The notes: generated by a model not told the origin, from the letters alone. DNA of 32,000 bases from an archaeon (GCA_024277355.1 JAJRVL010000002.1:60001-92000); one strand, 5' to 3'. Positions 6,558-32,000 are shown, counted from the first letter of the stretch. A program made the numbers and translations.

Positions 6558-6561
6558 TTTT

Positions 6562-8503: not shown

Positions 8504-8658
8504 TGCGACCACCGGGAATCGAACCCGAGTCCGAAGCTAATTACAAAACCTTAATAATTAACATAAGTTTCCGCAAAGCGAAAACCTTTTTTTGGTAAAG
8601 CTTTTTTTCTAAAAAAGGTTTTTGGCAAGCTCCAATTCTACCACTGAACCATGGTCGC
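8504..8658 (-). tRNA. tRNA-Gly (anticodon GCC) with an ~84-nt intron at the canonical 37/38 position
   Basis: 5' exon GCGACCATGGTTCAGTGGTAGAATTGGAGCTTGCCA. 3' exon AGCTTCGGACTCGGGTTCGATTCCCGGTGGTCGCA. The acceptor, D, anticodon (GGAGC/GCTTC) and T stems all pair. The intron is approximately 8539..8622. Confidence 0.8.
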
Positions 8659-14636: not shown

Positions 14637-15545
14637 TTATTTGCGTTTTCTTACTTGAGAATAAATTCCTGCATAATAATATGCCCCAAACCCCATCCAT
14701 ATCGCAGAAAATAACATATAAATTAAACTTGAAACAAAATAGTTTATTCCAATATAACCTATGCTTCTAGAAACCACGAAAAAAATTACTCCTATTATTA
14801 ATAATGCAATAAAAATGTCAATTACTTTTCCTTGAGTTAAATTCCATCCATCTCTTAAAGACTGGAATATTCCTTTGTTTGTTTCCAAGAAAACATATGG
14901 TGTCATTGAAAGCCTGATTGAATTATAGATTACTATAAACAGGTAAAAGAAAGATAAAAATAATGCAAGCAAAAGAAGTATAATGCCTATTCCGGAAATT
15001 AAAGTGATTATTCCGATTAAATATAATGCAATTATTCCAATGAAAACAAAAAAGAATCTTTTGTCATAATAAGAAATTAAAGCCAGAATTCCTGATAAAA
15101 TCTGGAGGATTATCAGTTTAACATATTTTGTTGCATTAAAAGGAGCTGTTTTAATTTTGTAGAAGTTCATTCCTTTTAGTAAAATTAAAACAGAAAAAAA
15201 TCCCTGGATTAATAAAATCATAAAATAACCAACAAAGGTAATTGAAATAATGGTAATTGATTCTGGAAATTGATTAAGTGTAGTAATTATTAATTGTGGT
15301 AAAACCTCTGCAATAAATTTAAGTATTTCAATTAAAGGCCGACTTCCCATAAGCAGAATTCCATAAGACATGCCATATATTTTCATTATTATTTGCACGT
15401 AAATTTTGTTTATAGTGTCTGATATTGTGAAAAAATAAACTAAAAATGAGATTAAATTTATAAGAAACCATATTTTTAAATATTTCATGGCTTCTTTATT
15501 TTTTTTCCATTTAAAACTATTATTTAAAATAATGCTATAATCCAT
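14637..15545 (-). CDS. Polytopic membrane protein, unknown function
   Basis: 302 aa with about 7-8 hydrophobic segments. No motif recognised. Confidence 0.6.
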   Translation of the reverse strand: MDYSIILNNSFKWKKNKEAMKYLKIWFLINLISFLVYFFTISDTINKIYVQIIMKIYGMSYGILLMGSRPLIEILKFIAEVLPQLIITTLNQFPESITIISITFVGYFMILLIQGFFSVLILLKGMNFYKIKTAPFNATKYVKLIILQILSGILALISYYDKRFFFVFIGIIALYLIGIITLISGIGIILLLLALFLSFFYLFIVIYNSIRLSMTPYVFLETNKGIFQSLRDGWNLTQGKVIDIFIALLIIGVIFFVVSRSIGYIGINYFVSSLIYMLFSAIWMGFGAYYYAGIYSQVRKRK

Positions 15546-15647
15546 ACTAACTTTATTTGTTTTTTTAATATAAATATCTATTGTTTCTAAAAATGAGTGA
15601 ATTATTGTATTTTTGTCATAATATGGTAATTTATGATCCTTAAATGC

Positions 15648-15710
15648 TTATTTACTTTTCCTTACTTGAGAATAAATTTCTGAATAACTGTAAACTGCAA
15701 ATGCTTCCAT
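15648..15710 (-). pseudogene. Relic of the 3' end of a paralogue of the 14637..15545 membrane-protein gene
   Basis: 15641-15690 aligns at the nucleotide level with 14631-14680. The encoded MEAFAVYSYSEIYSQVRKSK compares with the C-terminus ...YYAGIYSQVRKRK. Confidence 0.5.
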
Positions 15711-15752
15711 TATTAAAAATATTAAGCAATAGAATTATTTAAAGGTTTAGTT

Positions 15753-16103
15753 TTAAAGTAATTTTAAGTTTTTAGTGTATTTGTTAATTAAGTTTTCAGG
15801 GCCTGGGCCAATTCCAATACATGTTTTGCTTCCTGAAGCAATTTGTGTTCTTCCTGCATCTCTGATTAATGCAGTTGGAATTTCTTTTTTTATTGATTCA
15901 AATAATTCAAGTAATTCTTTTTCTGATGAAACTTTTAATACAACTTTTTGTGTTCCTGTTTGTTTCCATTCTTCAACCCATTCAGGAAACTTTATTTTTG
16001 TTTTTTCTAAGGCTTCAACTGAAGCGTGTGATGCCTGTGCGGCAGTTTTTCCTTTCTGCATCTTTAAGTCTGTTCTAATTACAATTACTTGCTTAAATTC
16101 CAT
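15753..16103 (-). CDS. pth2: Peptidyl-tRNA hydrolase, archaeal Pth2 type
   Basis: VIRTDLKMQKGKTAAQASHAS...VVLKV...IRDAGRTQIASGSKTCIGIGP is the PTH2 signature. Confidence 0.92.
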   Translation of the reverse strand: MEFKQVIVIRTDLKMQKGKTAAQASHASVEALEKTKIKFPEWVEEWKQTGTQKVVLKVSSEKELLELFESIKKEIPTALIRDAGRTQIASGSKTCIGIGPGPENLINKYTKNLKLL

Positions 16104-16649: not shown

Positions 16650-17624
16650 TCAAAAATACTTGATTTTAAGTATTTCAGAATAAAGGATATAATTGTAGTC
16701 TTTGATTATATCAAAGAATTTTTCTTTCATTTCTTTTATTATTTTCTTGAATTCCTTATGCGAAGAAACAACTAATTCCATTTCAAAATCAGCAAAACCA
16801 ATTGTTTTGTCAACATAAATTATTTTTTCATGCTGTAATGCAAAATTCACTAATTTATTGTATTGTTTTAAATCCTTTAAATTAAAATTAACTTTATAGT
16901 AATTTAACTCAAACAAGTCAAAGTTTAAGTTTAATCTAAAACCTTGAATTAATCCTTCTTTTTTCATTTTTTCCAATGCATATTTGACTTGGATTGGGGT
17001 TATCTTCAGTTTTTTTGCAATTTCAACTGAACCAATTCTTGCATTATCTGAAACTATTTTTAAAATTTTTTTTTCTTTTTCTGAAACCTTAATTCTTTTG
17101 TCTGTTCCTGAAATAATTTTTTTTCTTTCTTCTTTTTCTGGCTTAAGAAAAGCAAGGTTAAACTGAATTAAACCTGAATAAAGTGAAACATCAATTTTTT
17201 GAAATAAATTCCTGTATTTTATCATTAATTTTTTCCAAAATTCATTGAATTCAAATGAATTTTTTGCCCAAATCACAAAACATAAGTCAAATTCGCCGTC
17301 AGTTTTTCCGACCCACCAAATCATATTATTTCCAATTAAATAGTTAGTTAATTCCTGTTCTTGTTCAGGATTAATGTACTGGTATTTCAGATAAACCCTG
17401 AACTGTTCAAACCCAAGCAAAGACATGTCAATAGCAGAATAATAACCTAAAATAACTTTTTTTTCCTCAAGTTTTTTTATTCTGTAATTGACGGTTCCTG
17501 AATTTAACTTAATTTTTTTTGCCAGCTTGTTAACTGAAATTCTTGAATTCAAATCCAATTCAAATAAAATTTCCCTGTCTTTTGAATCCAGTTCAAGTTT
17601 ATTAAAAATAGCATTTAAAGACAT
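16650..17624 (-). CDS. Tandem-duplicated Lrp/AsnC-family transcriptional regulator
   Basis: It contains two HTH modules (LDSKDREILFELDLNSRISVNKLAKKIKLNSGTVNYRIKKLEE and EKEKKILKIVSDNARIGSVEIAKKLKITPIQVKYALEKMKKEG). Each is followed by a RAM-like region. Confidence 0.75.
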   Translation of the reverse strand: MSLNAIFNKLELDSKDREILFELDLNSRISVNKLAKKIKLNSGTVNYRIKKLEEKKVILGYYSAIDMSLLGFEQFRVYLKYQYINPEQEQELTNYLIGNNMIWWVGKTDGEFDLCFVIWAKNSFEFNEFWKKLMIKYRNLFQKIDVSLYSGLIQFNLAFLKPEKEERKKIISGTDKRIKVSEKEKKILKIVSDNARIGSVEIAKKLKITPIQVKYALEKMKKEGLIQGFRLNLNFDLFELNYYKVNFNLKDLKQYNKLVNFALQHEKIIYVDKTIGFADFEMELVVSSHKEFKKIIKEMKEKFFDIIKDYNYILYSEILKIKYF

Positions 17625-17713
17625 ATTTAATCAAATTAATAAAAATAGTTAAATTATTATCGTTTTGATTAAAAATCACTTAAAAACTTTTAATAGGCTG
17701 ATAACACACAGTT

Positions 17714-18490
17714 ATGTATATGTCTAATCTTTATTCTATTGATTTTATTTGGGATATTTGTTTAGAATCTCTTTATAACAAAAAACTTTATTCAAAGTCT
17801 CTTACAAAACTTTTTAATAAATATAACTCAAAAAAAATTCTTGACTGTTCTTGTGGAACAGGTTTTCCTTCAATTGAATTAAAGAAAAACGGCTTTGATT
17901 TAACTTGTTCTGATGCAAGCTTTAATGCAGTTAAAATCCTTAAATCAAAATTAAAGCAGGAAAATATTTCAATGCCTGTATTAAATCTTAGCTGGCAGAA
18001 ATTAGATTCTTTTTTTAATGAAGAATTTGATGCAGTTTTATGCAGGGGCAATTCAATTAGTTATGCAGTTTCTTGGGAAAAGAATTCAGTTGATCTTGAA
18101 GAAGCAAGAAAAGAAATTATTGTTTCACTGAAAAACATATATTCTGTAATAAAAAAAGGAGGAATCCTTTACATTGACATTGCTTCACTTAAACCAAAGA
18201 ATCCGCTTAATTCAGTTTTTATAAAAGAGTTTTCTTCTGGAAAACTTAAAGGAAAAAAATTAAGTATTAGTTCTGAAGTAAATAATTTAGTGACTGAAAA
18301 TAAAAGAACCTGGAAACTTAATGTTTTAGTTGAACCTGAAAATAAAAGTCATTCAATTTATTCTGAAGGATATCTTTTAACTAAAATAGAATTAGTTTCA
18401 GTTCTAAAACAAATTGGCTTTAAAGAAATTCTTCCGTGCAGTGAAATCAAAGGCGAAAAAGTTTATGACGCTTTTGTTGCATTAAAATAA
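17714..18490 (+). CDS. Class I SAM-dependent methyltransferase (glycine/sarcosine N-methyltransferase-like)
   Basis: Motif I ILDCSCGTGFPSIEL, acidic loop CSDAS, post-II AVLCRGNSISY. The subfamily assignment is tentative. Confidence 0.7.
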   Translation: MYMSNLYSIDFIWDICLESLYNKKLYSKSLTKLFNKYNSKKILDCSCGTGFPSIELKKNGFDLTCSDASFNAVKILKSKLKQENISMPVLNLSWQKLDSFFNEEFDAVLCRGNSISYAVSWEKNSVDLEEARKEIIVSLKNIYSVIKKGGILYIDIASLKPKNPLNSVFIKEFSSGKLKGKKLSISSEVNNLVTENKRTWKLNVLVEPENKSHSIYSEGYLLTKIELVSVLKQIGFKEILPCSEIKGEKVYDAFVALK

Positions 18491-18501
18491 TATGTGGTTA
18501 A

Positions 18502-18837
18502 ATGAAGTGTTTTTTGAAATCAAAAATTCACAGGGCAAAAGTGACTGAAGCAAACTTAGATTATGTTGGAAGCATTTCAATTGATGAAAAATTAATGCAG
18601 AAAGCAGGGTTAGAAGAAAATGAAAAAGTTTTGGTTGCAAATATTTCTAATGGAGAAAGAATTGAAACATATGTAATCAAAGGAAAAAAAGGAGAAATCT
18701 GCTTAAATGGAGCAGCGGCAAAAAAATTCATGGAAAATGATTTAGTTATAATAATGGCTTTTGAATATTCAGACAAACCAGTTAAACCAAAAATTGTTTT
18801 GGTTGATGAAAATAATGGGTTTAAGGAGTTTTTGTAA
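18502..18837 (+). CDS. panD: Aspartate 1-decarboxylase, pyruvoyl-dependent (bacterial PanD type)
   Basis: KSKIHRAKVTEANLDYVGSISIDEKLM...CLNGAAA includes the Gly-Ser self-cleavage site. Confidence 0.9.
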   Translation: MKCFLKSKIHRAKVTEANLDYVGSISIDEKLMQKAGLEENEKVLVANISNGERIETYVIKGKKGEICLNGAAAKKFMENDLVIIMAFEYSDKPVKPKIVLVDENNGFKEFL

Positions 18838-19491
18838 TCACGGCAGGTAATATTTTAATACTGTTCCGTAACTTCTGTTCATAATTTTTGCTATTTCTGA
18901 AGGAGTTTTTCCTTGGTTTTTTAATTTTTGTATTTGTTGTTTTTCTTTTTGGCTTAGAATTTTAATTTTTCCTCCTTTTTGTTTTCCTCCTTTTTTTTGC
19001 ATTTCTCTTAATTCTTTTTTTGGTCTTATTTCAAGTAGTTTGTTAATGTAAAGTAGTGCGGTTGAACTTATTTTAATTCCTTTTTTTTTCATTTCTGTGG
19101 AAATTTGTCTGAGTGACTTATTTTTTTCACTGAAAATTTTGTTTGATGCAATAATTAATGTTATTGCATTAAGCGTGTTTCTTGAATTAATTTGCTGGTT
19201 TTTTATGTAGTGTTCCCATAATTTATTTCTTGTTTTTAATGGAATGTCTTTTCTTATCAAAACAAAGAATTTTTCTTTTTTCATTGGAGCTAATTTTTTT
19301 TGTAATAAATTGTGTTTTATTAAACTATTTCTGACAGTTTGATTTGAAACAGTTATTTTAAATTTTGTTTCAATTTGGTTTTGTATTTCGGCAACTGAAA
19401 GAGGTTTATTTAAAATAAAGTTTTTGTTTACCTGCCTTTTAATAGAATTAATTATTTGCGGTGAAATTTTTGGAGTATTTTTTCTTTTCAT
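18838..19491 (-). CDS. Lysine-rich multi-HTH DNA-binding protein (paralogue P1)
   Basis: At least three HTH-like modules. The C-terminal one resembles the Hin/resolvase HTH (LSQKEKQQIQKLKNQGKTPSEIAKIMNRSYGTVLKYY). It shares the core KFFxLIxKxIP...HTH with P2 and P3. Confidence 0.6.
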   Translation of the reverse strand: MKRKNTPKISPQIINSIKRQVNKNFILNKPLSVAEIQNQIETKFKITVSNQTVRNSLIKHNLLQKKLAPMKKEKFFVLIRKDIPLKTRNKLWEHYIKNQQINSRNTLNAITLIIASNKIFSEKNKSLRQISTEMKKKGIKISSTALLYINKLLEIRPKKELREMQKKGGKQKGGKIKILSQKEKQQIQKLKNQGKTPSEIAKIMNRSYGTVLKYYLP

Positions 19492-19496
19492 ATAAA

Positions 19497-20444
19497 TCAG
19501 AAATCTTTTGAAGTTGGAAACCTCATTTTATTCATTTTATTGATTTTTTCAATTCTTAATTGTTTTTGTCTTTTGCTCCATAAATTATTTATTTTTTCCA
19601 TTAAAATTTTTTCATTTTTAATTCCTGTTTTTTCTAATTGTGCTAACACGTCAGCAGGATAATAATCCATGTTAACTAATTCACTTATTTTTATGCTGAT
19701 TTCTTTTGAAACGGTTTTTGGTTTAATTTTAATTTTTGTTTTGTTTCCAAAATAAAATCTTTTTCGCATTGCTTTTTCTTCTTTAGAAAATATTTCTAAT
19801 CTGGTTGAAATAACATTTATTCCTGATAAAGAAATGCTTACTTTTTTTTCAGCTAATTTTTTTTGAATTTCAATAAAAGCAGTTGGTTTTTTTGTGTTTT
19901 TTTGTTTGAATAATTCTACTGCAATTTTAATGTAATTTTTTGCAGGTATTTTGTATTTTATTTTAACTGAATTTCTTGCATATAATTTCCAAAGCTTGTT
20001 TTGTTTGTCTGCTGAAAAATATTTTTTTATTTGGTTTGGAATTGATTTTGAAATTAAATCAAAAAACCTTTTTTTTGGCATTATTTTGTTTTTTTTTCTT
20101 GTTTGTCTGTAAACAGAAAGTTTTGTCTGTCTTTTTGGTTTTTTTGGAGTTGTTCCTTTGTTTTCCCAGTAATTTTTAATTGCTATTTTGATTTCTCCGT
20201 GATGTAATTTTATTCCTTCTTTTATAAGTTTGTTTTTAATTGCATTAGCACTTAATTGTTGTTCAGTCATTTCTCCAATTTTTTTCATAGTTGTTTCATT
20301 AATTCTTTTAACTTTTGGTTTTATTTTAACTTCAGCAACCATGATTTTTTTGGTTTGTTGTATGCTAAAACTTGAATTAACTCTTGTTCTTTTGCTTAAG
20401 TGATTTTGTTTTAGCATTTTTTTTATTGGAACAGGTTTTTTCAT
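19497..20444 (-). CDS. Lysine-rich multi-HTH DNA-binding protein (paralogue P2)
   Basis: Repeated modules (LSANAIKNKLIKEGIKLHHGEIKIAIKNYW; FIEIQKKLAEKKVSISLSGINVISTRL; PADVLAQLEKTGIKNEKILMEKINNLW). Core RFFDLISKSIP. Divergent to nurA. Confidence 0.6.
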   Translation of the reverse strand: MKKPVPIKKMLKQNHLSKRTRVNSSFSIQQTKKIMVAEVKIKPKVKRINETTMKKIGEMTEQQLSANAIKNKLIKEGIKLHHGEIKIAIKNYWENKGTTPKKPKRQTKLSVYRQTRKKNKIMPKKRFFDLISKSIPNQIKKYFSADKQNKLWKLYARNSVKIKYKIPAKNYIKIAVELFKQKNTKKPTAFIEIQKKLAEKKVSISLSGINVISTRLEIFSKEEKAMRKRFYFGNKTKIKIKPKTVSKEISIKISELVNMDYYPADVLAQLEKTGIKNEKILMEKINNLWSKRQKQLRIEKINKMNKMRFPTSKDF

Positions 20445-20471
20445 TATTTAATTGTATTTTTCTTTCTTTTT

Positions 20472-20488
20472 AAATTTCACTGGCGTTT
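20472..20488 (+). promoter_or_regulatory. Site A of the shared element AAATTTCACTGGCGTTT (core TTCACTGGCG) upstream of nurA
   Basis: Identical 17-mer to 23032..23048. It is followed by AAACCTTTTTAAATTAAC (BRE/TATA-like). TTCAC starts 55 nt before the nurA ATG. Confidence 0.55.
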
Positions 20489-20530
20489 ATCTTCATAAAC
20501 CTTTTTAAATTAACAAAACTTTTATTTTAT

Positions 20531-21628
20531 ATGAATGTTAATTCTTTGATTAATGATGCAGTAACTAAAATTAAAGGCAATGAAGGAAAGAAAAAAAACA
20601 TTGCAGGAAAATTAACTGCAGTAAAAAAAACAAATTTAAGTGAATTTAATTCAAAAGAATTATTTGAAGAAAACTTTTTTTTTGAAATTTCTCCTGCTGA
20701 ATTAAACAATAAAATTGCCGGAACTGATTCAGGGTTTGTTGGAAAAAGAATGCATTCAGTTGATATTGTTTTAATTAAAACAGTTTCAGCAGTTTTTTCT
20801 TATCAAAAAAACAAATTAACTAAAGCAGAATATTTTCCTTCTCCTACTGCTTTTCCTAAACCTTTTATTTCTTCTAATACTCTGGAAAATGATGAATTTC
20901 AGTCTAATCAGTCTTTAATGAGGTTAAAAGAAGAAATTTCTAATTCAATAGAAGTAATAGAAAAATTTAAGCCTGATTATTGTTTTTTGGATGGAAGTAT
21001 TATTCCGCAGTATGCTGAAACAAAAAAAGATTCACAGTTGTATTCAAATTATTCTAATTTAATTAAATTATTTCAAGAATTATATGAAACTGCAGAGCAA
21101 AACAAATGTAATTTAATTGCTACTGTGGAAGATTCAAGGGGTTCAAGATTCAGGAGTATTTTGCAGAAAGAAATCTTAGAAAAAAATAAGTTAATTGAGT
21201 CAGATGCATTAAATTCTTTTTTTGATTCAAGTTTACTTGATTATTTGCTTTCAAAAAATGAAAGAAGTTTTTGTTTTAATTACACGTCATCCATAAAAGA
21301 GCATCCGATTTTAAAGGATTTTAATGAAAAATGGGCTTCAAGAATAAAAACTTTTTATTTAAAGCCTTCAATGCTTGACAGGCCTTTAAGAATTGAATTT
21401 CTTCATAACGGAAAAAATTTAACTGAATACTGTAATGAAATTGCTTCTGTTGTTTTGTCTTTGTCTTCTTTGCATAAAGAATATGCTTATCCTTCTGTTT
21501 TAATTGAAGCAGATTTAAGGGCAAGATTAAAACCAAATGAAGTGGAAATTTTGTTTAATAAAATTCAGGATAAATTAGGAAGAGAAAATGCTTTTTTGGC
21601 TTTAAGGAGAAATTCAAGGCCGTTTTGA
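20531..21628 (+). CDS. nurA: NurA 5'-3' nuclease
   Basis: IAGTDSGF..., CFLDGSIIP and ATVEDSRGSRF match the NurA catalytic-motif layout. Confidence 0.8.
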   Translation: MNVNSLINDAVTKIKGNEGKKKNIAGKLTAVKKTNLSEFNSKELFEENFFFEISPAELNNKIAGTDSGFVGKRMHSVDIVLIKTVSAVFSYQKNKLTKAEYFPSPTAFPKPFISSNTLENDEFQSNQSLMRLKEEISNSIEVIEKFKPDYCFLDGSIIPQYAETKKDSQLYSNYSNLIKLFQELYETAEQNKCNLIATVEDSRGSRFRSILQKEILEKNKLIESDALNSFFDSSLLDYLLSKNERSFCFNYTSSIKEHPILKDFNEKWASRIKTFYLKPSMLDRPLRIEFLHNGKNLTEYCNEIASVVLSLSSLHKEYAYPSVLIEADLRARLKPNEVEILFNKIQDKLGRENAFLALRRNSRPF

Positions 21629-21677
21629 TGAAAGGATTAATATTATTTTTCTTTCTTCTTTTTTTTAGTGAATTAAG

Positions 21678-22349
21678 ATGGAAAAATTAAAAGTTAAAGC
21701 AGTTTTTTTTGATTTATGGAATACTTTGGCTTTTACTGATTCAAAAAAAGATTTATTCAGAGAAATGCAGGTTCGTTTTGGTTTAAATGAAATAACTCAT
21801 TCTCAGTTTTTGCAGGGATGTGAAAGAGCAATAATGTTAGAGGAATTTGAAACTTTAGAGCATTTATATTCAAAGTTGCTGAATTATTTTTCTGTTCCTT
21901 CAGGAGAAATTATGTTAGGGGACTTGGATTTTTTATGGAATTATACTTTAAAGAAAAACAAGTTTTATCCTGAAACAAAAAAAGTTTTAACTAAAACAAA
22001 AAAACATTTTAAGACTGCTTTAATTTCTAATTGCGAGAATTTTGGAGTTAAAGGGTTGTCTAATGGATTTGATTTTAAGGATTATTTTGATGAAATAATT
22101 CTGTCTTGTGATGTAAATTTATTAAAACCTAATTCAAAAATTTTTCAGGTTCCTTTAAAAAAACTTAAAGTTAAACCTGAACAGGCAGTAATGATTGGTG
22201 ATTCAATTCGAACTGACATGAAAGGCGCAAAAAGATCAGGATTAAAAACAATTTTAATTGACAGAAAACAAAGATTTAAAGGAAAAAAATTAGAGGTTGA
22301 TGCTGTTATTTCTTCTTTAAATGAATTAGAAAAAGTAATTGAATTTTAA
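21678..22349 (+). CDS. HAD-superfamily hydrolase (subfamily IA-like)
   Basis: Motif I FFDLWNTL, motif II LISNC, motif III K (LLKP), motif IV IGDSIRTDMKGA. Confidence 0.75.
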   Translation: MEKLKVKAVFFDLWNTLAFTDSKKDLFREMQVRFGLNEITHSQFLQGCERAIMLEEFETLEHLYSKLLNYFSVPSGEIMLGDLDFLWNYTLKKNKFYPETKKVLTKTKKHFKTALISNCENFGVKGLSNGFDFKDYFDEIILSCDVNLLKPNSKIFQVPLKKLKVKPEQAVMIGDSIRTDMKGAKRSGLKTILIDRKQRFKGKKLEVDAVISSLNELEKVIEF

Positions 22350-22354
22350 TGAAT

Positions 22355-23005
22355 TTAATAAGAAGAATCTCTGGTTTCTCTTATAATCCAATCAACTGCC
22401 TTAAATCCGGTTAATTGCTGTCTTTCTCTTTTGCTTCCTAATGAAAAAGTTTTTGCGTCATGTTTGAATTCTGCTGCAATTTTTTTCCATATGTCTCTTG
22501 TAGAAAGCTTGTTGTTTTTTGTTAATTCAATTATTCTGTTTTCAATCAGGTTATTTCTTATTTTTGTTTTTCCTTTAGCTGAAGTTATTTTTGGAATAGT
22601 TGTTTTAGGAGTGCTTATTGTAATTGAATTAGTGTTATATTCTTTTGCTTTAACTAAACCTGTTTCGTTTGCAATTCTTCTTAATGAAGCATAACTCATT
22701 CCATCAATTTTTTTTGAAACAGCAACTAAATTAAGTTTTCCTTTTTTTGATTCAATCCATAAAACATTAACTGCATTAACAATGTTTTCCGGAGAAATAA
22801 TTTTAGCGTTTTTAACTGAATTTTTTGAATTACTTTTTATTAATTCAAATGTTTTTAATTTAATTCTCCTTGGAATTGTTTTATTAAATGATCTAAAAAA
22901 TTTAGGCAGAACATTTCGCCCCAAAACAACTTTTCTCGGTTTAAGCATTTTTTGTGTTCTTGCATTTCTTCTTCTTACAGTTAAATGAGCTCGATTTTTA
23001 TTCAT
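22355..23005 (-). CDS. Lysine/arginine-rich HTH protein (paralogue P3)
   Basis: Core KFFRSFNKTIP...GMSYASLRRIANETGLV and a second HTH (LSTRDIWKKIAAEF). Divergent to herA. Confidence 0.55.
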   Translation of the reverse strand: MNKNRAHLTVRRRNARTQKMLKPRKVVLGRNVLPKFFRSFNKTIPRRIKLKTFELIKSNSKNSVKNAKIISPENIVNAVNVLWIESKKGKLNLVAVSKKIDGMSYASLRRIANETGLVKAKEYNTNSITISTPKTTIPKITSAKGKTKIRNNLIENRIIELTKNNKLSTRDIWKKIAAEFKHDAKTFSLGSKRERQQLTGFKAVDWIIRETRDSSY

Positions 23006-23031
23006 AATTTATTTTGTTTTTTAAAGTTTAT

Positions 23032-23048
23032 AAATTTCACTGGCGTTT
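23032..23048 (+). promoter_or_regulatory. Site B of the shared element AAATTTCACTGGCGTTT upstream of herA
   Basis: Identical 17-mer to site A, followed by AAAACCTTTAAATAAC. TTCAC starts 56 nt before the ATG at 23092. With starts at 20444/20531 and 23005/23092, both divergent intergenic regions are 86 nt. Confidence 0.55.
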
Positions 23049-23091
23049 TACACTGAAAACCTTTAAATAACTTATAATCATTTTTTTGTTT

Positions 23092-24627
<1,536 letters not shown>

Positions 24628-24652
24628 TAATTAAAAAAAACACTAATTTTTT

Positions 24653-25234
24653 ATGCTAAGAAAACTTTGGAGAAAAACCCGAAAACCTTTTGTTAAAACT
24701 GTTCAGGGATTAAAAAAAGTTGAAGGTGGAAAAGAAAGAAGAAAAAAGTTAGCTGATTCTTTAAAACATGCAAGAAAAATAGATAAATGTATTAAAATTT
24801 CAAGATGGGGTCGTTTTGGAGAATCTTTTTTAGAACGTGATAAAAAAATTCTTCTTTCAAGAATTAATAATTTGCTTAATCGTGAAAAACAAGTTAAGGT
24901 AGTTAAAATTTTAGATTTAGGTTCTGGTTCAGGCGTTTATTGGGATAAACTTGTACAGGGAAACCCCAGACTTAAGAGGAAACTTAAAGTTGTTTGTATT
25001 AACCCTACAAGAACTCTTTTCAGAGAAACTGAAGTAAAAAGTCTTGTTTTAGGAAATCTTTTAACAATGAATAAAGCAAGATTTAAAAAATTTCTAAAAG
25101 AAAAAGGAAAATTTAATTTGGTTATTTCTTCTGCAGGCTCTTATCATTACAGTTTTGAAAAAGAATTATTTGATAGAAGAATAATGGATGTTTTAATTGA
25201 AAAAAAAGAATCTAATTTTTTGCTTTTAACTTAA
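24653..25234 (+). CDS. Small class I methyltransferase-like protein with a basic N-terminal tail
   Basis: Motif I ILDLGSGSGVYW. The K/R-rich first ~45 aa suggest nucleic-acid binding. It lies 25 nt downstream of herA on the same strand. Confidence 0.5.
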   Translation: MLRKLWRKTRKPFVKTVQGLKKVEGGKERRKKLADSLKHARKIDKCIKISRWGRFGESFLERDKKILLSRINNLLNREKQVKVVKILDLGSGSGVYWDKLVQGNPRLKRKLKVVCINPTRTLFRETEVKSLVLGNLLTMNKARFKKFLKEKGKFNLVISSAGSYHYSFEKELFDRRIMDVLIEKKESNFLLLT

Positions 25235-25486
25235 TCAAAAACCTAATTTTTTTAGTTTTGCACTTGGATCATCATTAATATATTCTTCTAATGCTTTTTC
25301 TAATTCATCTTCTTTTTCAAAACTTAATCCTTTTTTTGTTTTACCGCTTAATTCTTCAATTCTTAATCTTACTGCATCTCTTACTGCTTCAGTCCTTGAA
25401 GCATAAAAACCATTTTTAACTAATTTGTCAATTTTTTCAATGTCTTTTTTTGAAAAATTAATTAACACAGAAATTTTTGAATTCAT
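25235..25486 (-). CDS. Ribbon-helix-helix (CopG/Arc/MetJ-type) DNA-binding protein
   Basis: MNSKISVLINFSKKDIEKIDKLVKNGFYASRTEAVRDAVRLRIEE has the beta-strand/helix/helix pattern. I chose the ATG at 25486 (M6 of the listed ORF). Confidence 0.7.
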   Translation of the reverse strand: MNSKISVLINFSKKDIEKIDKLVKNGFYASRTEAVRDAVRLRIEELSGKTKKGLSFEKEDELEKALEEYINDDPSAKLKKLGF

Positions 25487-25530
25487 AATACTAAAACACA
25501 ATTAAACTTAATAAATATATACTAAAATAC

Positions 25531-25552
25531 ATTATTTATATATTATTTATAT
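25531..25552. repeat. Perfect tandem direct repeat 2 x ATTATTTATAT
   Basis: 11-nt period between the divergent RHH and PolB-like genes. It could be an RHH operator or duplicated TATA boxes. Confidence 0.4.
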
Positions 25553-25565
25553 ATTTGTTGCTTTC

Positions 25566-25575
25566 TTCACCGGCA
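25566..25575 (+). promoter_or_regulatory. Site C of the shared element (TTCACCGGCA) upstream of the PolB-like gene
   Basis: It matches TTCACYGGCR. It starts 58 nt before the ATG at 25624, and a TATA-like TTTTTAAAGAACTTAAAT lies between. Confidence 0.45.
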
Positions 25576-25623
25576 GTCAGGAGTTGGGTTTTTGTTTTTA
25601 AAGAACTTAAATTTGTTTCTTGT

Positions 25624-27105
25624 ATGCCTTTAACTTCCAATACCTTTTATTTATCCAATGCGGAATATGTTGAAAAAAAGAAAAGAGTTTCAGTTGAATT
25701 CTCTAACTTAAATGAAACAAGAAGAATTTCTTTTCCTTTTATTCCTTATATTATTCTTCATAAAAGTTTGCTGGACAAATCTTTTTTTGATTTCCTGAAA
25801 AAAAAGAAACTTAAAACCGAAAAAATAACTAATGGCTTTAAAGTTTTTTCAAGTGATTTTTCTTTTTTAGAAAAAGTGAATTCTTTTTTTGAAAAAAAAG
25901 GGATTTTACTTCCTTCTGAAACACAGTTTTTGTTATTAAAGAACTGGAGTTTTTTTGATGGATTTGAATTAAATGAAAATAATGAATTTGAAAAAAAAGG
26001 TTTTATTGAATTCCCTGAATTAAAACCTGAGTTCAGCTATAATTCCTTAAAAGAAAATGTTTCTGAAATGCTTTCTTTTTCTGATACTTCCGGAAAAAAC
26101 TTTTTAAATAAAATTATTCTTTCAAATGTTTTATGTTTAAAGCTGAATTATCTTAATGTTTCTAAATCGTCAATGCTTGATTCTTTTATTGAATTAATTT
26201 TATTTAGAAATAATTTTGCTTTTAATAAATCAAAACCAAAATTTGATTCAGGTTTTATTAAAAAATATTCAGGGAAATTAAAGGAAATTGATTTTTCTTT
26301 TGTCTGGCCTGTTTTGTTTTCTTTTCCTTTTCATAATTTAGGTTTTGATTCAGTTAATTGTTCCTGCTGTAAGCCGAAAGAATTTAATGAAAGAAATATT
26401 CTTCCTTCTTCTTTGATTGAAGTTAAATTCAATGAAGATGCCATTTATTTTGAATCATCTAATACTGACTGGAGTTCTTTTTTCCATGAAAAGGCTTTAG
26501 GAAAAGAAAAAAGAATTAAAAGAATGAATGAATGGCGTTTAAGAAACATTCCTTCAGGTCCTTTTTTCAGAAATGATGTTTTAAGAATTCCTTTAAATGA
26601 TGCATTAAAACTAAAAGAAGAAGAAAAAATAGTTTTCTTAAATGATCATAATTTAGTTTGGAGCTGTACTAAAAAAGAATGTTTTATTTCAAAAGAATTA
26701 ACTGAATTAAACAAAAAAACAGTTTTGTTTGATAAAAAAATAAATGAATTGGAATCCGGTTCAATTAAAGATAATGGAATTGCTTTTTCTTTGTTTCTGG
26801 AAAAAAATCCTGAATTTCATTTTTTCTCTGAATATAAAAATGTATTAAAAACAATTTTTTCTTCTGTTCCTTTTCATTTATCTTCTCATTCTTCTGCATT
26901 TTTTGATTTTGTTCTTTCAAATTCAATTAAATCTGTTTTTTCTTCGGTTTTAACTAAATTCAGGGAATTTTCAGTGTCTAATTCAAGTCCTTCTTTTATT
27001 ACAAAAAAAGGTGTGTTAGTTGATTCTGATAATCCTCTTGATTTGCTTACTGAATTCTCTAAAAACCAGAATATTCCTGTTCCAGAGCTTTCTATAAAGA
27101 ATTAA
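25624..27105 (+). CDS. Miniaturised, probably catalytically inactive family-B DNA-polymerase-like protein
   Basis: By-eye alignment to archaeal PolB gives four matches. The N-terminus FYLSNAEYVEKKKRVSVEF...FPFIPYIIL resembles ILDxDYxxxxGKPVIRLF...FxPYFY. SSMLDSFIELILFRNNFAFNKSKP resembles [25 protein letters not shown]. Motif A is IDFSFVWPVLFSFPFHNLGFDSVNCSCCK versus [27 protein letters not shown]. The motif C position reads KIVFLNDHNLVW versus KVLYIDTDGLYA. The exonuclease domain and motif B (KxxxNSxYG) are not detectable. I prefer the start at M24 of the listed TTG ORF. Confidence 0.5.
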   Translation: MPLTSNTFYLSNAEYVEKKKRVSVEFSNLNETRRISFPFIPYIILHKSLLDKSFFDFLKKKKLKTEKITNGFKVFSSDFSFLEKVNSFFEKKGILLPSETQFLLLKNWSFFDGFELNENNEFEKKGFIEFPELKPEFSYNSLKENVSEMLSFSDTSGKNFLNKIILSNVLCLKLNYLNVSKSSMLDSFIELILFRNNFAFNKSKPKFDSGFIKKYSGKLKEIDFSFVWPVLFSFPFHNLGFDSVNCSCCKPKEFNERNILPSSLIEVKFNEDAIYFESSNTDWSSFFHEKALGKEKRIKRMNEWRLRNIPSGPFFRNDVLRIPLNDALKLKEEEKIVFLNDHNLVWSCTKKECFISKELTELNKKTVLFDKKINELESGSIKDNGIAFSLFLEKNPEFHFFSEYKNVLKTIFSSVPFHLSSHSSAFFDFVLSNSIKSVFSSVLTKFREFSVSNSSPSFITKKGVLVDSDNPLDLLTEFSKNQNIPVPELSIKN

Positions 27106-27201
27106 CCCTAAAAGGTTTGCTTTTTATTTGTTTTCCTGTACTTTTAAGTATAATTTAACCGATTTTTTCTGGTTTTTATTTGTTAATTAAAGTGATTTAT
27201 T

Positions 27202-27408
27202 ATGCATGAATTTTTGACAAGATTTGAAACAACAAGATTAATTAGTGCCAGGTCATTCCAGCTGGCTTTAGGTGCTCCTCCTTTAGTTAAAACAACTAAA
27301 GGAGAATCAATGCTGGATGTAGCAAAAAAGGAATTAGAAAACAAGAAAATTCCATTAGCAGTTATAAGAAAATTTCCTTCAGGGGAAATAACTAAAGTTA
27401 ATCCTTAG
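27202..27408 (+). CDS. rpoK: RNA polymerase subunit K (Rpo6/omega-like)
   Basis: LTRFETTRLISARSFQLALGAPPLV...PLAVIRKFPSGE is the Rpo6 signature. Confidence 0.88.
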   Translation: MHEFLTRFETTRLISARSFQLALGAPPLVKTTKGESMLDVAKKELENKKIPLAVIRKFPSGEITKVNP

Positions 27409-27416
27409 GTGATTTT

Positions 27417-27602
27417 ATGGGTAAATCTGTTCCAAAAGGCGTAAAAACTAAAGCTGAAATCTTAATGAAAGAAGATGATGGTTTTTCAAGAGATTTTGAA
27501 AAAAATAAGGAAATAATTAATTCTTTTGATCTTAGTTTTTCAAAGAAAATAAGAAACCTTATTGCAGGATATGTCAGCAGAAGAAAAGGCGTAAAAGAGT
27601 AA
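27417..27602 (+). CDS. rps17e: Ribosomal protein S17e
   Basis: MGKSVPKGVKTKAE...SKKIRNLIAGYVSR is the eS17 pattern. Confidence 0.8.
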   Translation: MGKSVPKGVKTKAEILMKEDDGFSRDFEKNKEIINSFDLSFSKKIRNLIAGYVSRRKGVKE

Positions 27603-29980
27603 TTAATTAATTGAATTTTCTTTTGGAATTGAACTGCCTTCGTTTTCTTTGTCTCTTTCTATTTCATAATAACTTCCTGAAGCAGCTTTTTCCATTTCAG
27701 AATCATGAGTTATTATAAAAATCTGGTCAACTAAAGAAGGAAGATGTTCTTTCATCATTTTACTTAATTTTGCTGTTGCATTTTTATCTAAATTATGTGT
27801 TGGTTCATCTAAAATTAACCAGCTTAAATTCTGAGTTAATACAAGAGAAAAAGCAACTCTGATGCAGATTGCTGCAGCACTTCTTTCTCCTCCTGAAAGA
27901 ATTCCTTCAACCCTGATCCATTTTCCATTTTTTTCTTTTACTTTTATTTCGTAATTTCCTTCTTCTATTTCCATTTTAGCTGAAGTAAAATCGCCGTAAG
28001 GATAAATTTTATTCCATACGTCATCCATTGCTTCATTTATTGTGTCAATCATTTCTTTTCTTAATTCTGCCTGAGTTGCATTTAAGGCATTGTTAAATAA
28101 TGCTAATTCAGATAAAATTTTTTCATGTAATTCAGTTTCTTTTTTTAATTCATTAATTCTGTTTTCTTCTTTTTCTATTTTTTCAATGTTTAATTTAATG
28201 CTTTCAATTAATTCAGCAGTATTTTTGATTTCTTTTTCAGAGAATTCAACTGAAGATTTAACTGAATAAACAATTTCTTTTTTTTTGCTGAAAGCATTTT
28301 CTATATAGCCAAGTGTTTCTTTTTTTTCTGTTAATTCTGATAACTCTTTTTTCCAGTTTTTGGATTTAAAAAATTCTTTTATTAATTCAATTTCCTGTTC
28401 AATTTTTTTTATTTCGTTTTCTTTTGTTTGTATTTTTTCTTCGTTTACTTCTTTTTCCAGTTTTTCTTTTAATAAATTGCTTTCATTCAATTTTTCTTTT
28501 ATTAATTCAATTTGTTTTTGTGTTTCTTTTATTTCATTTAATCTTTCTGTTAAACCTTTAATTTTGTTTTTTTCTTCTTCAAGTGAAAAAACTTTGTTTT
28601 CTAATATTGTTTTGGTTTTTTTTATTTCTTTGATTTCCAGCATGGTTTTTCTTTCATCTTCTGTTAAACCTTTGTTTATTATTCCTATTTTTTCTTCTTC
28701 TTTTTCATAAGAGTTAATTAATTCAATTTTTTTTTCCTGACTTAATTTTGTTGAACAAACAGGACAGTCTGATTCTGATTTAGTTAATTTTTTTATGTTT
28801 TCTTCTAATTCAGCAACTCTTTTTTCGTTAACTAAAATTCCGTTTTTTGTTTCAAAAACTTCTTTTTCAAGTTCTTCAATTCTTTTTTCTTTTGCTTTTT
28901 TTTCTTCCTGTATTTCTTTTATTTTTTTTTCTGTTTCTTCTTGTTTTTCTTTTATTTTTTCTTCTGAGTTAATTCCTGAAAGAAGTTCGGTTTTTCGGTT
29001 TTTTTCTTTTTCAAGAAATTCTTTTTTTTCGTTTTCTGCTTTTATTCCTGCTTTAATTGCAGAAAGTTCTCTTAATTTTGTTTCTATTTCGTTTTTTTCT
29101 TTTTTTAATTCAATTAATTTATTTTCTTCGTTTTCTGGTTCTTTGTTTTCAATGTCTTTTCCTTTTATTTTTTTTTCTGTTTCTGATATTTTTGTTTCAA
29201 GTTTAATTTCTTTTTCTTTTATTTCTTTGAATTCTTTTTCTTTTTTTTCCAGTATTTCTAATTCAGTTGCGTGTTGTTTTAATTCGTTTTTTTCTTTCTC
29301 TATTTTTTCCTGTGTTTCTTTTAGTTGTTTTTCTTTTTCTTCTTTTTTTGGTTTAATTCTTTTAATGCTTTATCATCAAATGAATCAGAATGTTTTTTGA
29401 TTAAGTCTTTTTTGTCTTCATTTATTTTTTTTATTCTGTTTATTACTGAAATATTTGTTTTTCTTGCGTTTTCGTATTTGTCTAACTCTAAAATTTCATC
29501 AAACTTTTTTTTTCTTTGCATTGGACTTAATTTTAAAAAAAAGTCAATTTGGTTTTGTTCTGAATAAACAGCTCTTGAAAATAAATCGTAATTCATTTCA
29601 AGTATTTCTTCTATTTTTTCGTTTACGTCGTTTGGTTTTGGTCCTGCAATTAATTTTCCTTCTTCTAATATTTTTGCCTGATTAGAGTTTTTTCCTGCAA
29701 AAACTGTTCTTTTAATTAAATAATTTTTGTTGTTGTAGTCAAATTCTAATTCAACTTTTGATTCATCCATTTGATTAGGTTTATTCATTATTATTTCATT
29801 TAAGCTTACGGATTTAGAATTTAATGCAGGATAAGTGCCGAATAAAGCATAACACATGGCTTCAATTACTGTGCTTTTTCCTGCTCCAATTATTCCGGTT
29901 AATACATTAGTTCCTTTATTAAACTGAAATTCTGTTTCTTTATGGCTTTTCCAGTTAAACAATTTTACTTTTTTAATCAT
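27603..29980 (-). CDS. rad50: Rad50 ATPase, interrupted by one frameshift at 29343..29349
   Basis: N-lobe (29980..29321 frame): KSHKETEFQF..GIIGAGKSTVIEA. The downstream frame is open from ~29350 to 27603. It carries a Met-free coiled coil (which is why the track starts at 28643), the zinc hook CPVC (28755..28766), the signature LSGGERSAAA, Walker B LILDEPTHNLD and the H-loop FIITHD. Confidence 0.85.
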
Positions 29981-30044
29981 CTGTTTTATTTGTATTTAGA
30001 GCTTTTTAAAAAAATAACCAGCAGCAACAAATAATTATGTAGAA

Positions 30045-30314
30045 TTAAAGTAGATTCATTCCAATATTTTCAAATGAACTTATTCCTGAAATTTCTTTTA
30101 TTGCTTTTTCTATTTCTTCTGTTATTCCGTCATTTCCTTTTGCTTCAACTAATAAAGCAAATTCTATTGCTTCTAATCCAAACGCAATTGGTTTTCTTTG
30201 AATGTCTTTTAATTCTCCAAATAAAGGCATTTTTTCTTTTAGTGTTTGTTCTACTTTATCTGTTTCTTCAATTCCTTCAGGTGAAACCCTGTAAATTAAT
30301 ACCATTTTGCCCAT
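30045..30314 (-). CDS. ef1b: Elongation factor 1-beta (aEF-1b)
   Basis: 89 aa; VLIYRVSPEG...KPIAFGLEAIEFALLVEAKG is typical of aEF-1beta. Confidence 0.85.
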   Translation of the reverse strand: MGKMVLIYRVSPEGIEETDKVEQTLKEKMPLFGELKDIQRKPIAFGLEAIEFALLVEAKGNDGITEEIEKAIKEISGISSFENIGMNLL

Positions 30315-30324
30315 TTTTTATCAC

Positions 30325-30480
30325 TTAAGGCCCTATAAATCCACATTCAGTGCATTTGTATTCTTTTGTTGTTGTTTTACAGTTGTCGCATCTAATTATT
30401 TTTGTTTTACTGCATTTTGGACATTTGAATTCAGTGAAATCAAAATTCACTTCTTTATTGCATGAATTACATATTTTCAT
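30325..30480 (-). CDS. Zn-ribbon protein (COG2888-like) upstream of ef1b, 51 aa
   Basis: My translation is MKICNSCNKEVNFDFTEFKCPKCSKTKIIRCDNCKTTTKEYKCTECGFIGP, with four CxxC pairs. It has the conserved archaeal neighbourhood with ef1b. The listed + ORF 30350..30535 is its antisense shadow. Confidence 0.65.
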   Translation of the reverse strand: MKICNSCNKEVNFDFTEFKCPKCSKTKIIRCDNCKTTTKEYKCTECGFIGP

Positions 30481-30598
30481 TTACAATCCCTCTTTAATAA
30501 TCTTTTTTGAAAAAAGTTTAATCAAAAAACGCTGACTTTATGTTTAAATATAATCAGTTACTCAATTATTTCTGTAGTATTAAATTTAAAAGCTTTTA

Positions 30599-30672
30599 GG
30601 GCTCGTGGCGCAACTGGATAGCGCAGTCCGCTTCGGACGGACAGGCTGGGGGTTCGACTCCCTCCGAGCTCA
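30599..30672 (+). tRNA. tRNA-Arg (anticodon UCG), CCA not encoded
   Basis: Acceptor GGGCTCG/CGAGCTC, D arm GCGC-AACTGGATA-GCGC, anticodon arm GTCCG-CTTCGGA-CGGAC, T arm GGGGG-TTCGACT-CCCTC. Confidence 0.88.
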
Positions 30673-30726
30673 TTTGTGGTTTTGTCTGCGAGACAATGTA
30701 CTGCTTTCAGCTGAGTTGTGTTAATT

Positions 30727-32000
30727 TTAGTCAGCTTTTTTCTTTAAGTAACTTGAAAAGAATTCTTTTGTTTCTTTTTCTTTATAGATTTTCATTAAAT
30801 TTTTTCCTGCCAAAACCGCGTGTTTTTCTTTGAATCTTTTTGCAAGGAATTTTCCTGAATTAACTTTAATTTGTTTTTCAATGAATTCTTTTATTACGGT
30901 TTCTGCTTTAATGTGTTTTCTTTTTACTTTAGCATGGAAATGGGCTTTAATTTTTACTGCTTTTTTTCCGTGTTTTTCTTTAAATCTTTCAGAATGTGCT
31001 TTCATTTTAACAGGAGGGCCTTTAACTAATTTTTCTTTTTCTAATTTTGTTTCTTTTACTTCAATTAATAAAAGCATTTTTGTTTTTTCATCGCTCCAGA
31101 ATCTTTCTTTTAATACAGTGAAATCATTTTTTTCTATTTCTTTTTTTAATTTCCTTAAAAAACTCCTTAATTGCCCAAAAGTAACATCTTCATGAATTTT
31201 TTTGTATATAGTTGAAACAACAATAATGTTTTTTCCTGAAACTTTTTTTCTGAATTCTTTTTGACTTAAAATTTTAACAGGCTTTGGAAAGAAAAAATTC
31301 ATTGAAGGTTTTTTAATGAATTCTTTTGCTTTTTTCTTAAATTTAATGTAGGTTTCTTTTGATACTGCTGCAGAAACATTTCTTCTGTCATCTGTTGGAT
31401 CCAAAAAAATTAAGTTTCCATAAAATTTGTTTTCCAGTTCTTTTTCTTCTTTTTTATTTAATTTTTTTGTTATTGAAAGAACTTTTTTTTCTTTCCATTT
31501 AGAAACATTTCTTAATGCATTTTCAAAAGTTGAATATTTTAATATTATTAATTCTGTTAAATAACCTGAAAACCCCTGAGTTTTAAGTTCTGCGCCGTAA
31601 CAGTTTATTCCTTTAAGAAATTTTTTCATCAGACGTATTTCGTTTCTTTGTTTTTCTTTTATTTTCTCTTCTATGAATTCTGCATGAAATGGAGTTCTGT
31701 CAACTGAAGATAATAATTCTTTTGTTGATTTAATTTTGTATGCAGGAATTAATTCAATTTTGTGCCCTTTAATTTCTGTTTTAACATAAGGGTGTTCTCC
31801 GTAATCTATTTCCCAGTTTTTTGAGAATTTTTTTGCTATTCTTAATCCTTCTTTAATAAATTTTTCTTTTGGAATTTTTTTGTCAAATAAAATAAAAATA
31901 TCTATGTCTTTGTCTCCTTTTAGATGTGTATTTCTTGAAAGTGAACCTGCTAATATTGCATCTAAGTGAATTCCTTTCATTGACTTGATTTTTTTGATTA
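30727..32000 (-). CDS. cca: Archaeal class I CCA-adding enzyme (tRNA nucleotidyltransferase); 5' end runs off the window
   Basis: GSLSRNTHLKGDKDIDIFILF (catalytic DxD), HPYV, VDRTPFH. The frame stays open from 31980 to the window edge, so the true start lies beyond 32000. Confidence 0.88.
   Translation of the reverse strand, partial: IKKIKSMKGIHLDAILAGSLSRNTHLKGDKDIDIFILFDKKIPKEKFIKEGLRIAKKFSKNWEIDYGEHPYVKTEIKGHKIELIPAYKIKSTKELLSSVDRTPFHAEFIEEKIKEKQRNEIRLMKKFLKGINCYGAELKTQGFSGYLTELIILKYSTFENALRNVSKWKEKKVLSITKKLNKKEEKELENKFYGNLIFLDPTDDRRNVSAAVSKETYIKFKKKAKEFIKKPSMNFFFPKPVKILSQKEFRKKVSGKNIIVVSTIYKKIHEDVTFGQLRSFLRKLKKEIEKNDFTVLKERFWSDEKTKMLLLIEVKETKLEKEKLVKGPPVKMKAHSERFKEKHGKKAVKIKAHFHAKVKRKHIKAETVIKEFIEKQIKVNSGKFLAKRFKEKHAVLAGKNLMKIYKEKETKEFFSSYLKKKAD

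Follow-up and report, generated by a model that had tools for sequence, protein, structure and literature searches.

Organization of the locus and three related promoter sites

We analyzed a 32,000-nucleotide (nt) stretch of archaeal DNA (GCA_024277355.1, JAJRVL010000002.1:60001-92000; below, the window, with positions counted from its first letter), which carries on its plus strand the nurA and herA genes of the NurA-HerA end-resection module and a gene for a 493-amino-acid (aa) protein similar in predicted fold to family-B DNA polymerases (the PolB-like gene, or X). The subject of this work is a short GC-rich element found upstream of each of these three genes, in a window with a GC content of 27%. 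The three genes, the cores of the element, and the blocks similar to the TFB recognition element (BRE) and TATA box are located as follows.

20476-20485, plus strand: core of site A, TTCACTGGCG, 55 nt before the nurA ATG at 20531
20497-20511, plus strand: BRE/TATA-like block of nurA, AAACCTTTTTAAATT (AAACC TTTTTAAATT), about 25 nt before the ATG
20531-21628, plus strand: nurA (Pfam NurA, 2e-11)
23036-23045, plus strand: core of site B, TTCACTGGCG, 56 nt before the herA ATG at 23092
23055-23069, plus strand: BRE/TATA-like block of herA, GAAAACCTTTAAATA (GAAAACC TTTAAATA), about 25-30 nt before the ATG
23092-24627, plus strand: herA (Pfam DUF87/HerA central domain, 8e-31)
25566-25575, plus strand: core of site C, TTCACCGGCA, the canonical form of the element, 58 nt before the PolB-like ATG at 25624
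25594-25603, plus strand: TATA-like block of the PolB-like gene, GTTTTTAAAG, about 25-30 nt before the ATG
25624-27105, plus strand: PolB-like gene, 493 aa, with a family-B DNA polymerase-like fold in an AlphaFold model

The original prediction, made from the sequence of the window, had placed the three sites at these coordinates and spacings, and our scan of the window found both to be exact. The pattern TTCACYGGCR has exactly three matches on the two strands of the 32-kb window, all of them on the plus strand. The number expected from 100 dinucleotide shuffles is 0.06, and none of the shuffles (0/100) reached three matches. Tolerating one mismatch yields just one extra site, and a scan of the window with a position weight matrix (PWM), which had been suggested as a check, adds no promoter site to A, B, and C. 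The BRE/TATA-like block follows the core as described and precedes the ATG by about 25-30 nt, a leaderless-type spacing, and the nurA, herA, and PolB-like starts lack a Shine-Dalgarno sequence. Sites A and B are enclosed by an identical 17-mer, AAATTTCACTGGCGTTT, at 20472-20488 and 23032-23048, respectively. Sites A and B have the form CACTGGCG, and site C has the form CACCGGCA.

Conservation of the element in related loci

The window HerA has 2559 homologues at E<=1e-30, and those named at the source are mostly Diapherotrites or 'archaeon'. By these homologues, the window is assigned to the Iainarchaeota/Diapherotrites (DPANN). Our comparison set included 60 sequences (725 kb in total): the window, 20 loci around herA relatives from genomes, and 39 loci around PolB-like relatives from metagenomes. 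No exact match to the HerA or NurA protein of the window was found, and the loci (numbered with the prefix L) were retrieved by homology to HerA or to the PolB-like protein; each covers about 10 kb around the cluster.

The four closest genome loci, L001-L004, encode HerA proteins 79-83% identical to that of the window and are collinear with window positions 16650-31980 except for three minus-strand genes, P1, P2, and P3, described below. NurA orthologues in L001-L004 and L024 are 80-86% identical to the window protein, L024 being the closest relative (86%). The herA promoters of these five loci have (T/A)TCACCGGCA at the window spacing, and their BRE/TATA block is kept as CACTGAAAnCnTTTAAATA. 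At the nurA promoters of L001-L004 we found CACCTGCA or CACCGGAA, with CAGTGGAA also occurring among the orthologous nurA promoters, all at the same distance and with the BRE/TATA block kept as AAACCTTTTTAAA. The PolB-like promoters of L001-L004 carry TTTTCACCGGCA, but TTTTCATCGGCA in L003. The alignment of upstream regions from relatives, a further check suggested for the window, has therefore placed the core at nurA and herA orthologues in the same orientation and at the same distance. Two minus-strand occurrences of CACCGGAA, at L001:1405 and L019:1370, were rejected as promoter sites, being a coding coincidence in the Pth2 C-terminus (...FTGKLKLL).

In eight aligned spacers between the PolB-like gene and a divergent gene of the RHH family, TTTTCACCGGCA forms an almost invariant island, and TTTTTAA is invariant. 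In the same alignment, one-base, frame-breaking indels fall between the motif and the start codon. Site C is therefore not part of a coding sequence, and ATG 25624 is where the gene really begins. The element is kept in L001 and L003, where herA is preceded by a co-directional gene, which shows that it belongs to the plus-strand genes and not to a divergent one.

Loci that are more distant, with HerA proteins 50-67% identical to that of the window and a GC content of up to 59%, show the order nurA-herA-PolB-like, with the PolB-like gene directly after nurA-herA, and this order is ancestral. In these loci the sequence CACCGG[A/C]AAyCCaCTCyCTC precedes nurA and again the PolB-like gene, followed by BRE/TATA and, about 25 nt later, by the ATG. 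Altogether, the element was found in loci ranging from 27% to 59% GC. No copy precedes herA when it comes directly after nurA or after a small zinc-ribbon gene, and herA has its own where it stands apart from nurA, namely in the window, L001-L004, L024, and L058, as well as in L042, L044, L051, and L056 (with CCGGYAATTTACTYCC).

Specificity and architecture of the motif

For the enrichment analysis we used the 725 kb with 628 open reading frames (ORFs) and considered the region from -100 to -30 of each start. The exact core CACCGG[AC]A was present there in 27 of 50 PolB-like genes, 10 of 26 nurA genes, and 6 of 34 herA genes, versus 2 of 468 other ORFs (>=100 aa), within about 10 kb of the cluster. 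With a relaxed core the respective numbers were 33/50, 19/26, 6/34, and 15/468. Over the entire 725 kb, CACCGG[AC]A was observed 80 times versus 18 expected from base composition. In the AT-rich clade (132 kb), all 17 matches to TTCA[CT][CT][GT]GC[AG] are on the gene strand at nurA, herA, or PolB-like promoters. A scan that combined the core with C or G at position +13, a TATA box, and an ORF returned 40 sites at PolB-like genes, 20 at nurA, 8 at herA, and 5 elsewhere; 68 of the 73 promoter-context sites thus precede one of the three genes on the gene strand, and three of the five others are coding coincidences. Matches to GACTGGCAGAAAGG were also discarded as promoter sites, as they fall in GTPase coding sequence. 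The link between the element and nurA, herA, and the PolB-like gene that had been claimed for the window is conserved at the orthologous promoters of a phylum-level clade, and the element is nearly absent elsewhere.

The core of the element is CACCGG[C/A]A, and relatives that are less rich in AT have a longer form of about 20 bp, CACCGG[C/A]AAyn2-3aCTCyCyC. Core and extension are asymmetric and not palindromic, the inner CCGG alone being self-complementary. Among 58 aligned sites, C at the seventh base of the core (position 6, counted from 0) accounts for 67% and gives GGCA, whereas the 5' flank of the core has an information content of at most 0.32 bit. Position +13 is C in 78% of the aligned sites, although it was not used in their selection. 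Counted from the first C of the core, the distance to the start of the TATA box is 24-27 nt in 46 of 56 sites. A second tandem copy was found 27-29 nt upstream at the PolB-like promoters of L005, L006, L008, L009, and L027.

Such tight spacing to the TATA box (24-27 nt in those 46 sites), together with the strict orientation, would also fit an extended core-promoter element that is read directly by a specialized TBP/TFB paralogue. In archaeal initiation complexes, TFB contacts the BRE immediately next to the TATA box. At 16-19 bp beyond the TATA start, the core is out of reach of TFB, and the tandem copies found another 27-29 bp upstream are more easily explained by a separate DNA-binding factor, so that we regard direct reading by TBP or TFB as very unlikely. 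Fixed orientation, tight TATA spacing, tandem copies, and a single functional gene set point instead to the binding site of one co-regulating factor.

Predicted fold of the PolB-like protein

The 493-aa protein has no sequence or profile match in Pfam, NCBIfam, or the Protein Data Bank (PDB), and all 19 homologues that we found are unnamed or 'hypothetical' and have no Pfam domain. An AlphaFold model computed with 16 homologues as input reached a predicted local distance difference test score (pLDDT) of 86 and a predicted template modeling score (pTM) of 0.85. A Foldseek search of this model against the PDB gave 136 matches at E<=0.001, and the 50 listed were all family-B polymerases (50/50). 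The best match, 4flu, had an E value of 9e-8, a probability of 1.0, and a TM score of 0.49; the matches are archaeal family-B DNA polymerases. These polymerases are about 750-775 aa long, versus 493 aa for the window protein. Based on the model, the protein is predicted to have a family-B polymerase fold. The label 'PolB-like' of the original prediction therefore holds at the level of fold, with no sequence match to polymerases; in particular, the Pfam DNA_pol_B profile does not match the protein.

Divergent genes and the shared 17-mer

Four minus-strand genes of the window lie next to the three promoters.

18838-19491, minus strand: P1, HTH_38 protein (Pfam HTH_38, 6e-9), in the same lineage-specific insertion as P2
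19497-20444, minus strand: P2, lysine-rich ORFan divergent from nurA, with its ATG 32 nt from site A
22355-23005, minus strand: P3, lysine-rich ORFan divergent from herA, with its ATG 31 nt from site B
25235-25486, minus strand: RHH (CopG-like) gene divergent from the PolB-like gene (Pfam RHH_8, 5e-9)

P2, P3, and the RHH protein had been put forward as DNA-binding proteins and candidate regulators. The RHH assignment is confirmed by its Pfam match, while the 'multi-HTH' description of P2 and P3 is not, since neither has a significant match in Pfam or NCBIfam. P3 had no homologue among 5.8 billion clusters, and its single-sequence structure model (pLDDT 44) was unusable. P2 had two weak matches only among 1.8 billion representatives, and none in viral contigs. 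P3 shows weak similarity (E 0.008) to the gene in the same position of L024. P1 and P2 are absent from L001-L004 and P3 from L001-L003; in L004, the P3 position between the HAD gene and herA is occupied by a P1-like gene (6117-6869), a distant homologue (E 7e-7). The RHH gene is 83-88% identical in eight loci of the AT-rich clade and was not found in the more distant loci. As the motif is intact in L001-L003, where P1, P2, and P3 are missing, and the RHH gene is confined to the AT-rich subclade, the proposal that the divergent genes are general regulators fails: the element is far more widespread than any of them.

The Lys/Arg-rich proteins form a fast-evolving, probably DNA-binding family (window 18838-20444 and 22355-23005; L004:6117-6869; L024:5982-6965 and 2755-3174; L003:2531-3412; L002:6078-6245), whose genes in the AT-rich clade stand repeatedly back-to-back with motif-bearing nurA or herA promoters and are missing from the corresponding positions of sister genomes. 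In the spacer between the RHH and PolB-like genes (window 25508-25556), the AT-rich blocks TTAATAAATATATACT and TTTATATATTATTTATATATTT hardly vary among eight relatives, and they probably represent the promoter and operator of the RHH gene.

The position of P2 and P3 raises the question of whether the block at sites A and B is merely their duplicated promoter or operator, or the end of a mobile element carrying them, and unrelated to nurA and herA. A presumed TATA box of P2, AAATTTAAAAA on the minus strand, abuts the motif. As site A is 32 nt from the start codon of P2 and site B 31 nt from that of P3, the flanking AAATTT would be their TATA box and the element would occupy their BRE position. 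P1/P2 and P3 are also insertions relative to L001-L003, and the 17-mer identity is confined to the window genome. However, the core also occurs at nurA and herA in L001 and L003, where a divergent gene is missing, and dozens of more distant loci have it as well; L024 and L004 have P-like genes, yet their sites are canonical and non-identical. Site C has no such neighbor at that spacing, and neither an inverted nor a second copy was found that would mark the end of an element. For the core, this explanation is already refuted, and as a whole we consider it highly improbable. The alternative had been raised with the original prediction, and the part of it that stands is that AAATTT as a TATA box accounts for the extra identity flanking the core. 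As a speculation, a factor bound at sites A and B might also affect P2 and P3.

The perfect identity of the 17-mer at sites A and B is real, but it is not a conserved feature. In L024, too, nurA and herA stand back-to-back with lysine-rich genes, and the spacer between P2 and nurA can be aligned with that of the window. The sites of L024 are CAGTGGAAAC at nurA and CACCGGCAG at herA. As these differ within otherwise alignable spacers, the 17-mer represents a change specific to the lineage of the window. It looks like a short conversion patch, and we read it as a recent local homogenization linked to the two lysine-rich genes that were inserted back-to-back with these promoters. We found no terminal inverted or direct repeats bounding the P1/P2 or P3 insertions, and thus no evidence that they are transposons. 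A sequence resembling the element minus one base, TCACGGCAGG, lies at 18839-18848, right after the stop codon of the panD-like gene. Its interpretation as a relic of an older nurA site is now doubtful, because the P2-nurA spacer of L024 is alignable and has an ancestral-type site, CAGTGGAAACCT, on the nurA side.

Other promoters with and without the element

Some relatives have a gene for a free-standing LAGLIDADG_3 protein of about 285 aa, similar to intein endonucleases and located about 3.5-4 kb downstream of the PolB-like gene. The extended motif occurs about 55-65 nt upstream of this gene in all six loci (6/6).

L029:9944-10798, free-standing LAGLIDADG_3 gene, extended motif upstream
L054:~15059-15889, free-standing LAGLIDADG_3 gene, extended motif upstream
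L041:~5727-6374, free-standing LAGLIDADG_3 gene, extended motif upstream
L040:14850-15604, free-standing LAGLIDADG_3 gene, extended motif upstream
L007:15216-15479, free-standing LAGLIDADG_3 gene, extended motif upstream
L009:~9989-10367, free-standing LAGLIDADG_3 gene, extended motif upstream

The Asp residues are kept in both LAGLIDADG motifs of the protein. The LAGLIDADG ORF at L024:1146-2087 (minus strand) was considered as a relative of this gene and rejected, since it is an intein inside the Pth2 gene.

One could therefore ask whether the element is the site of the LAGLIDADG protein itself, a domesticated protein of the homing-endonuclease type that serves the NurA-HerA-PolB-like module as an autoregulated switch or as an enzyme that nicks or cleaves DNA at specific sites. 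Its own promoter carries the motif in each of the six loci, and the motif, being about 20 bp long and asymmetric, is like LAGLIDADG targets. Membership in a regulon does not make a protein its regulator, however, and with both Asp residues kept it may simply be a co-expressed nuclease. No free-standing LAGLIDADG gene was found in the window or in the loci of the AT-rich clade, and in L009 the gene looks disrupted although nurA and the PolB-like gene of that locus have kept the motif. This role for the LAGLIDADG protein seems to us quite unlikely.

Single further motif-bearing promoters were those of a PIN-domain gene (L007:3811-4281) and of a 46-aa zinc-ribbon gene (L040:19548-19742). Small zinc-ribbon genes also occur between nurA and herA in several GC-rich relatives.

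The suggested extension of the regulon to rad50 did not hold, as the CACCGG element was missing at the rad50 promoters of all 14 loci scanned (0/14). The available sequences thus indicate that rad50 is controlled separately from nurA, herA, and the PolB-like gene. The region upstream of rad50 (window 29981-30044; L001-L003 and L006) has a different conserved block, TACATAAyTAAT, and the GC-rich relatives share GGCCTAATT just before the rad50 ATG. No mre11, radA, or orc1 gene was present in the sequences compared (about 10 kb per cluster).

Neighboring genes

A HAD hydrolase gene lies between nurA and herA, and a methyltransferase-like gene follows herA. Downstream of the PolB-like gene are rpoK, the S17e gene, and a minus-strand Rad50 gene; no mre11 gene was found in the window. 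In the Rad50 gene (27603-29980), one frameshift at a poly-A/lysine run near 29320 separates an N-terminal ORF (29321-29980) from a C-terminal ORF (27603-28643); the frameshift is either an assembly error or genuine. The coiled coil and the CPVC zinc hook are open in the frame of the C-terminal ORF. HerA proteins of several relatives (L024:7063-9609; P0008, P0029, P0078, P0085, and others) are about 850 aa long and contain a LAGLIDADG intein after residue ~373, and the window HerA has no intein.

An Rfam scan of the window returned tRNA only and no other family. Its 155-nt tRNA match at 8504-8658 (minus strand), which ARAGORN did not report, is probably an intron-containing tRNA gene. At 3760-3790 (minus strand), just upstream of the GTG start of ORF 3313-3759, there is a GC-rich near-palindrome, CTCGCGAGCGAAATCGCGAAGG, in AT-rich surroundings.

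Proposed regulatory mechanism

We propose that the NurA-HerA end-resection module and the PolB-like gene are co-regulated across the Iainarchaeota through this element, which would be a conserved upstream promoter element specific to one strand, and we give this reading a probability of roughly 0.75. The GC-rich block would be the 5' half of the element, beginning 24-27 bp upstream of the TATA box and just upstream of the BRE. Assuming leaderless mRNAs, the position of the element relative to the transcription start would be roughly -45 to -60. It would be bound by one hypothetical sequence-specific factor encoded elsewhere in the genome, which may bind twice at the many PolB-like promoters that have tandem copies 27-29 bp apart. 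The bound factor would control the recruitment of TBP and TFB, and in this way nurA (or nurA-herA), herA, and the PolB-like gene could be switched together. The position just upstream of BRE/TATA favors activation.

Several points weigh against this proposal. The sequences show the element, its specificity for these genes, and its conservation, orientation, and spacing, while protein binding, activation rather than repression, leaderless transcripts, and a DNA-damage signal are components that we infer. The size of the regulon and the genome-wide background are seen here through about 10 kb around each cluster. Roughly half of the nurA and PolB-like promoters fit relaxed variants only (CAGCGGAA, TACCGGAA, GACCGGCA, CACTGGCA, CCGGYAAT), and the strict consensus is therefore partly imposed by the regular expressions used in our searches. 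Finally, core position 8 is G in sites A and B but A in 97% of the sites, and because of this A and B could be weakened or read by another factor.

The element is apparently undescribed, ordinary in kind and new in its specifics: our full-text literature searches returned no description of it, nor of regulons in the Iainarchaeota. To our knowledge, transcriptional regulation in DPANN archaea is essentially uncharted, and we know of no general DNA-damage regulon in archaea outside the Sulfolobales. If the proposal is correct, the element ties NurA-HerA functionally to an unannotated protein with a predicted PolB fold, and in certain lineages also to the free-standing LAGLIDADG protein. It would also be an argument for a role of the 493-aa hypothetical family in DNA-end processing. 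The 10-20-bp sequence can be used as bait for the regulator and, in the form of a PWM, to define the regulon in complete metagenome-assembled genomes.

Comparison with known regulatory systems

Archaeal upstream activating sites, such as those of Ptr2 and TFB-RF1, lie directly upstream of BRE/TATA in fixed orientation and spacing and sometimes occur in two tandem copies, as is the case here. The element shares further properties with such sites. Its distance and orientation before BRE/TATA are constrained, it is conserved at orthologous promoters while the spacer diverges, and it marks a coherent gene set and is rare elsewhere within about 10 kb of the cluster. We know of no sequence relation between the element and the Ptr2 or TFB-RF1 sites.

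A second comparison concerns Orc1/Cdc6 proteins, as the element might be a half-site similar to an origin recognition box (ORB) and bound by a non-initiator Orc1/Cdc6 paralogue, in the manner of the Orc1-2 damage response in Sulfolobales. The mini-ORB TTCCAGTGGAACT, bound by Orc1/Cdc6, is a 13-bp unit with perfectly conserved TTCC and GAA blocks (PMC1904270). Variants such as CAGTGGAAAC (L024 nurA) and CAGTGGAAAT (L005 PolB-like) resemble its right half, some of them (CAGTGGAAAC/T) being equal to it, and some sites, as in L007, contain a TTCCG-CAC-CGGAA dyad. Overall, however, the TTCC and GAA hallmarks are not conserved in our element: two thirds of the sites have GGCA and not GGAA, and the 5' flank varies. 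The mini-ORB used in this comparison is that of Pyrococcus and not one of this clade's own ORBs. There is no orc1/cdc6 gene or origin in the 60 sequences, and unlike ORBs at origins the element occurs in one or two copies per promoter with no origin cluster; the 32-kb window has three sites, all of them 55-58 nt ahead of a start codon.

The Orc1-2 element of Sulfolobales is the hexamer ANTTTC, found 23-55 nt before the ATG, through which Orc1-2 co-activates damage-response genes including ups, ced, and tfb3 (PMC6061795). It resembles our element in being short and promoter-proximal, and the resemblance noted earlier is present at sites A and B, whose 5' edge reads AATTTC (20473-20478 and 23033-23038). 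This hexamer is 53-58 nt from the ATG, is replaced by GCTTTC at site C, and is absent from most relatives, and a GAAAC-type match would have the opposite orientation. In addition, the Sulfolobus consensus AATAGTTTCRGWDTACTCWS lacks CACCGGMA, and the targets here are nurA, herA, and the PolB-like gene. On balance, we find the Orc1/Cdc6 explanation unlikely.

Csa3a of Saccharolobus islandicus activates nurA-herA operons and dpo2, which encodes PolB2; it binds just upstream of their promoters, at an imperfect palindrome that is also found upstream of cas promoters and is tied to CRISPR adaptation genes (PMC5587795). Our element differs in being asymmetric and strand-specific and in belonging to a DPANN lineage, and neither a CRISPR context nor a Csa3 gene was found in the sequences examined. 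The two systems are alike in their analogous target sets and in the position of the site just upstream of the promoters. Compared by architecture and targets, Csa3a is the closest functional precedent for joint control of nurA-herA and a PolB2-type polymerase gene.

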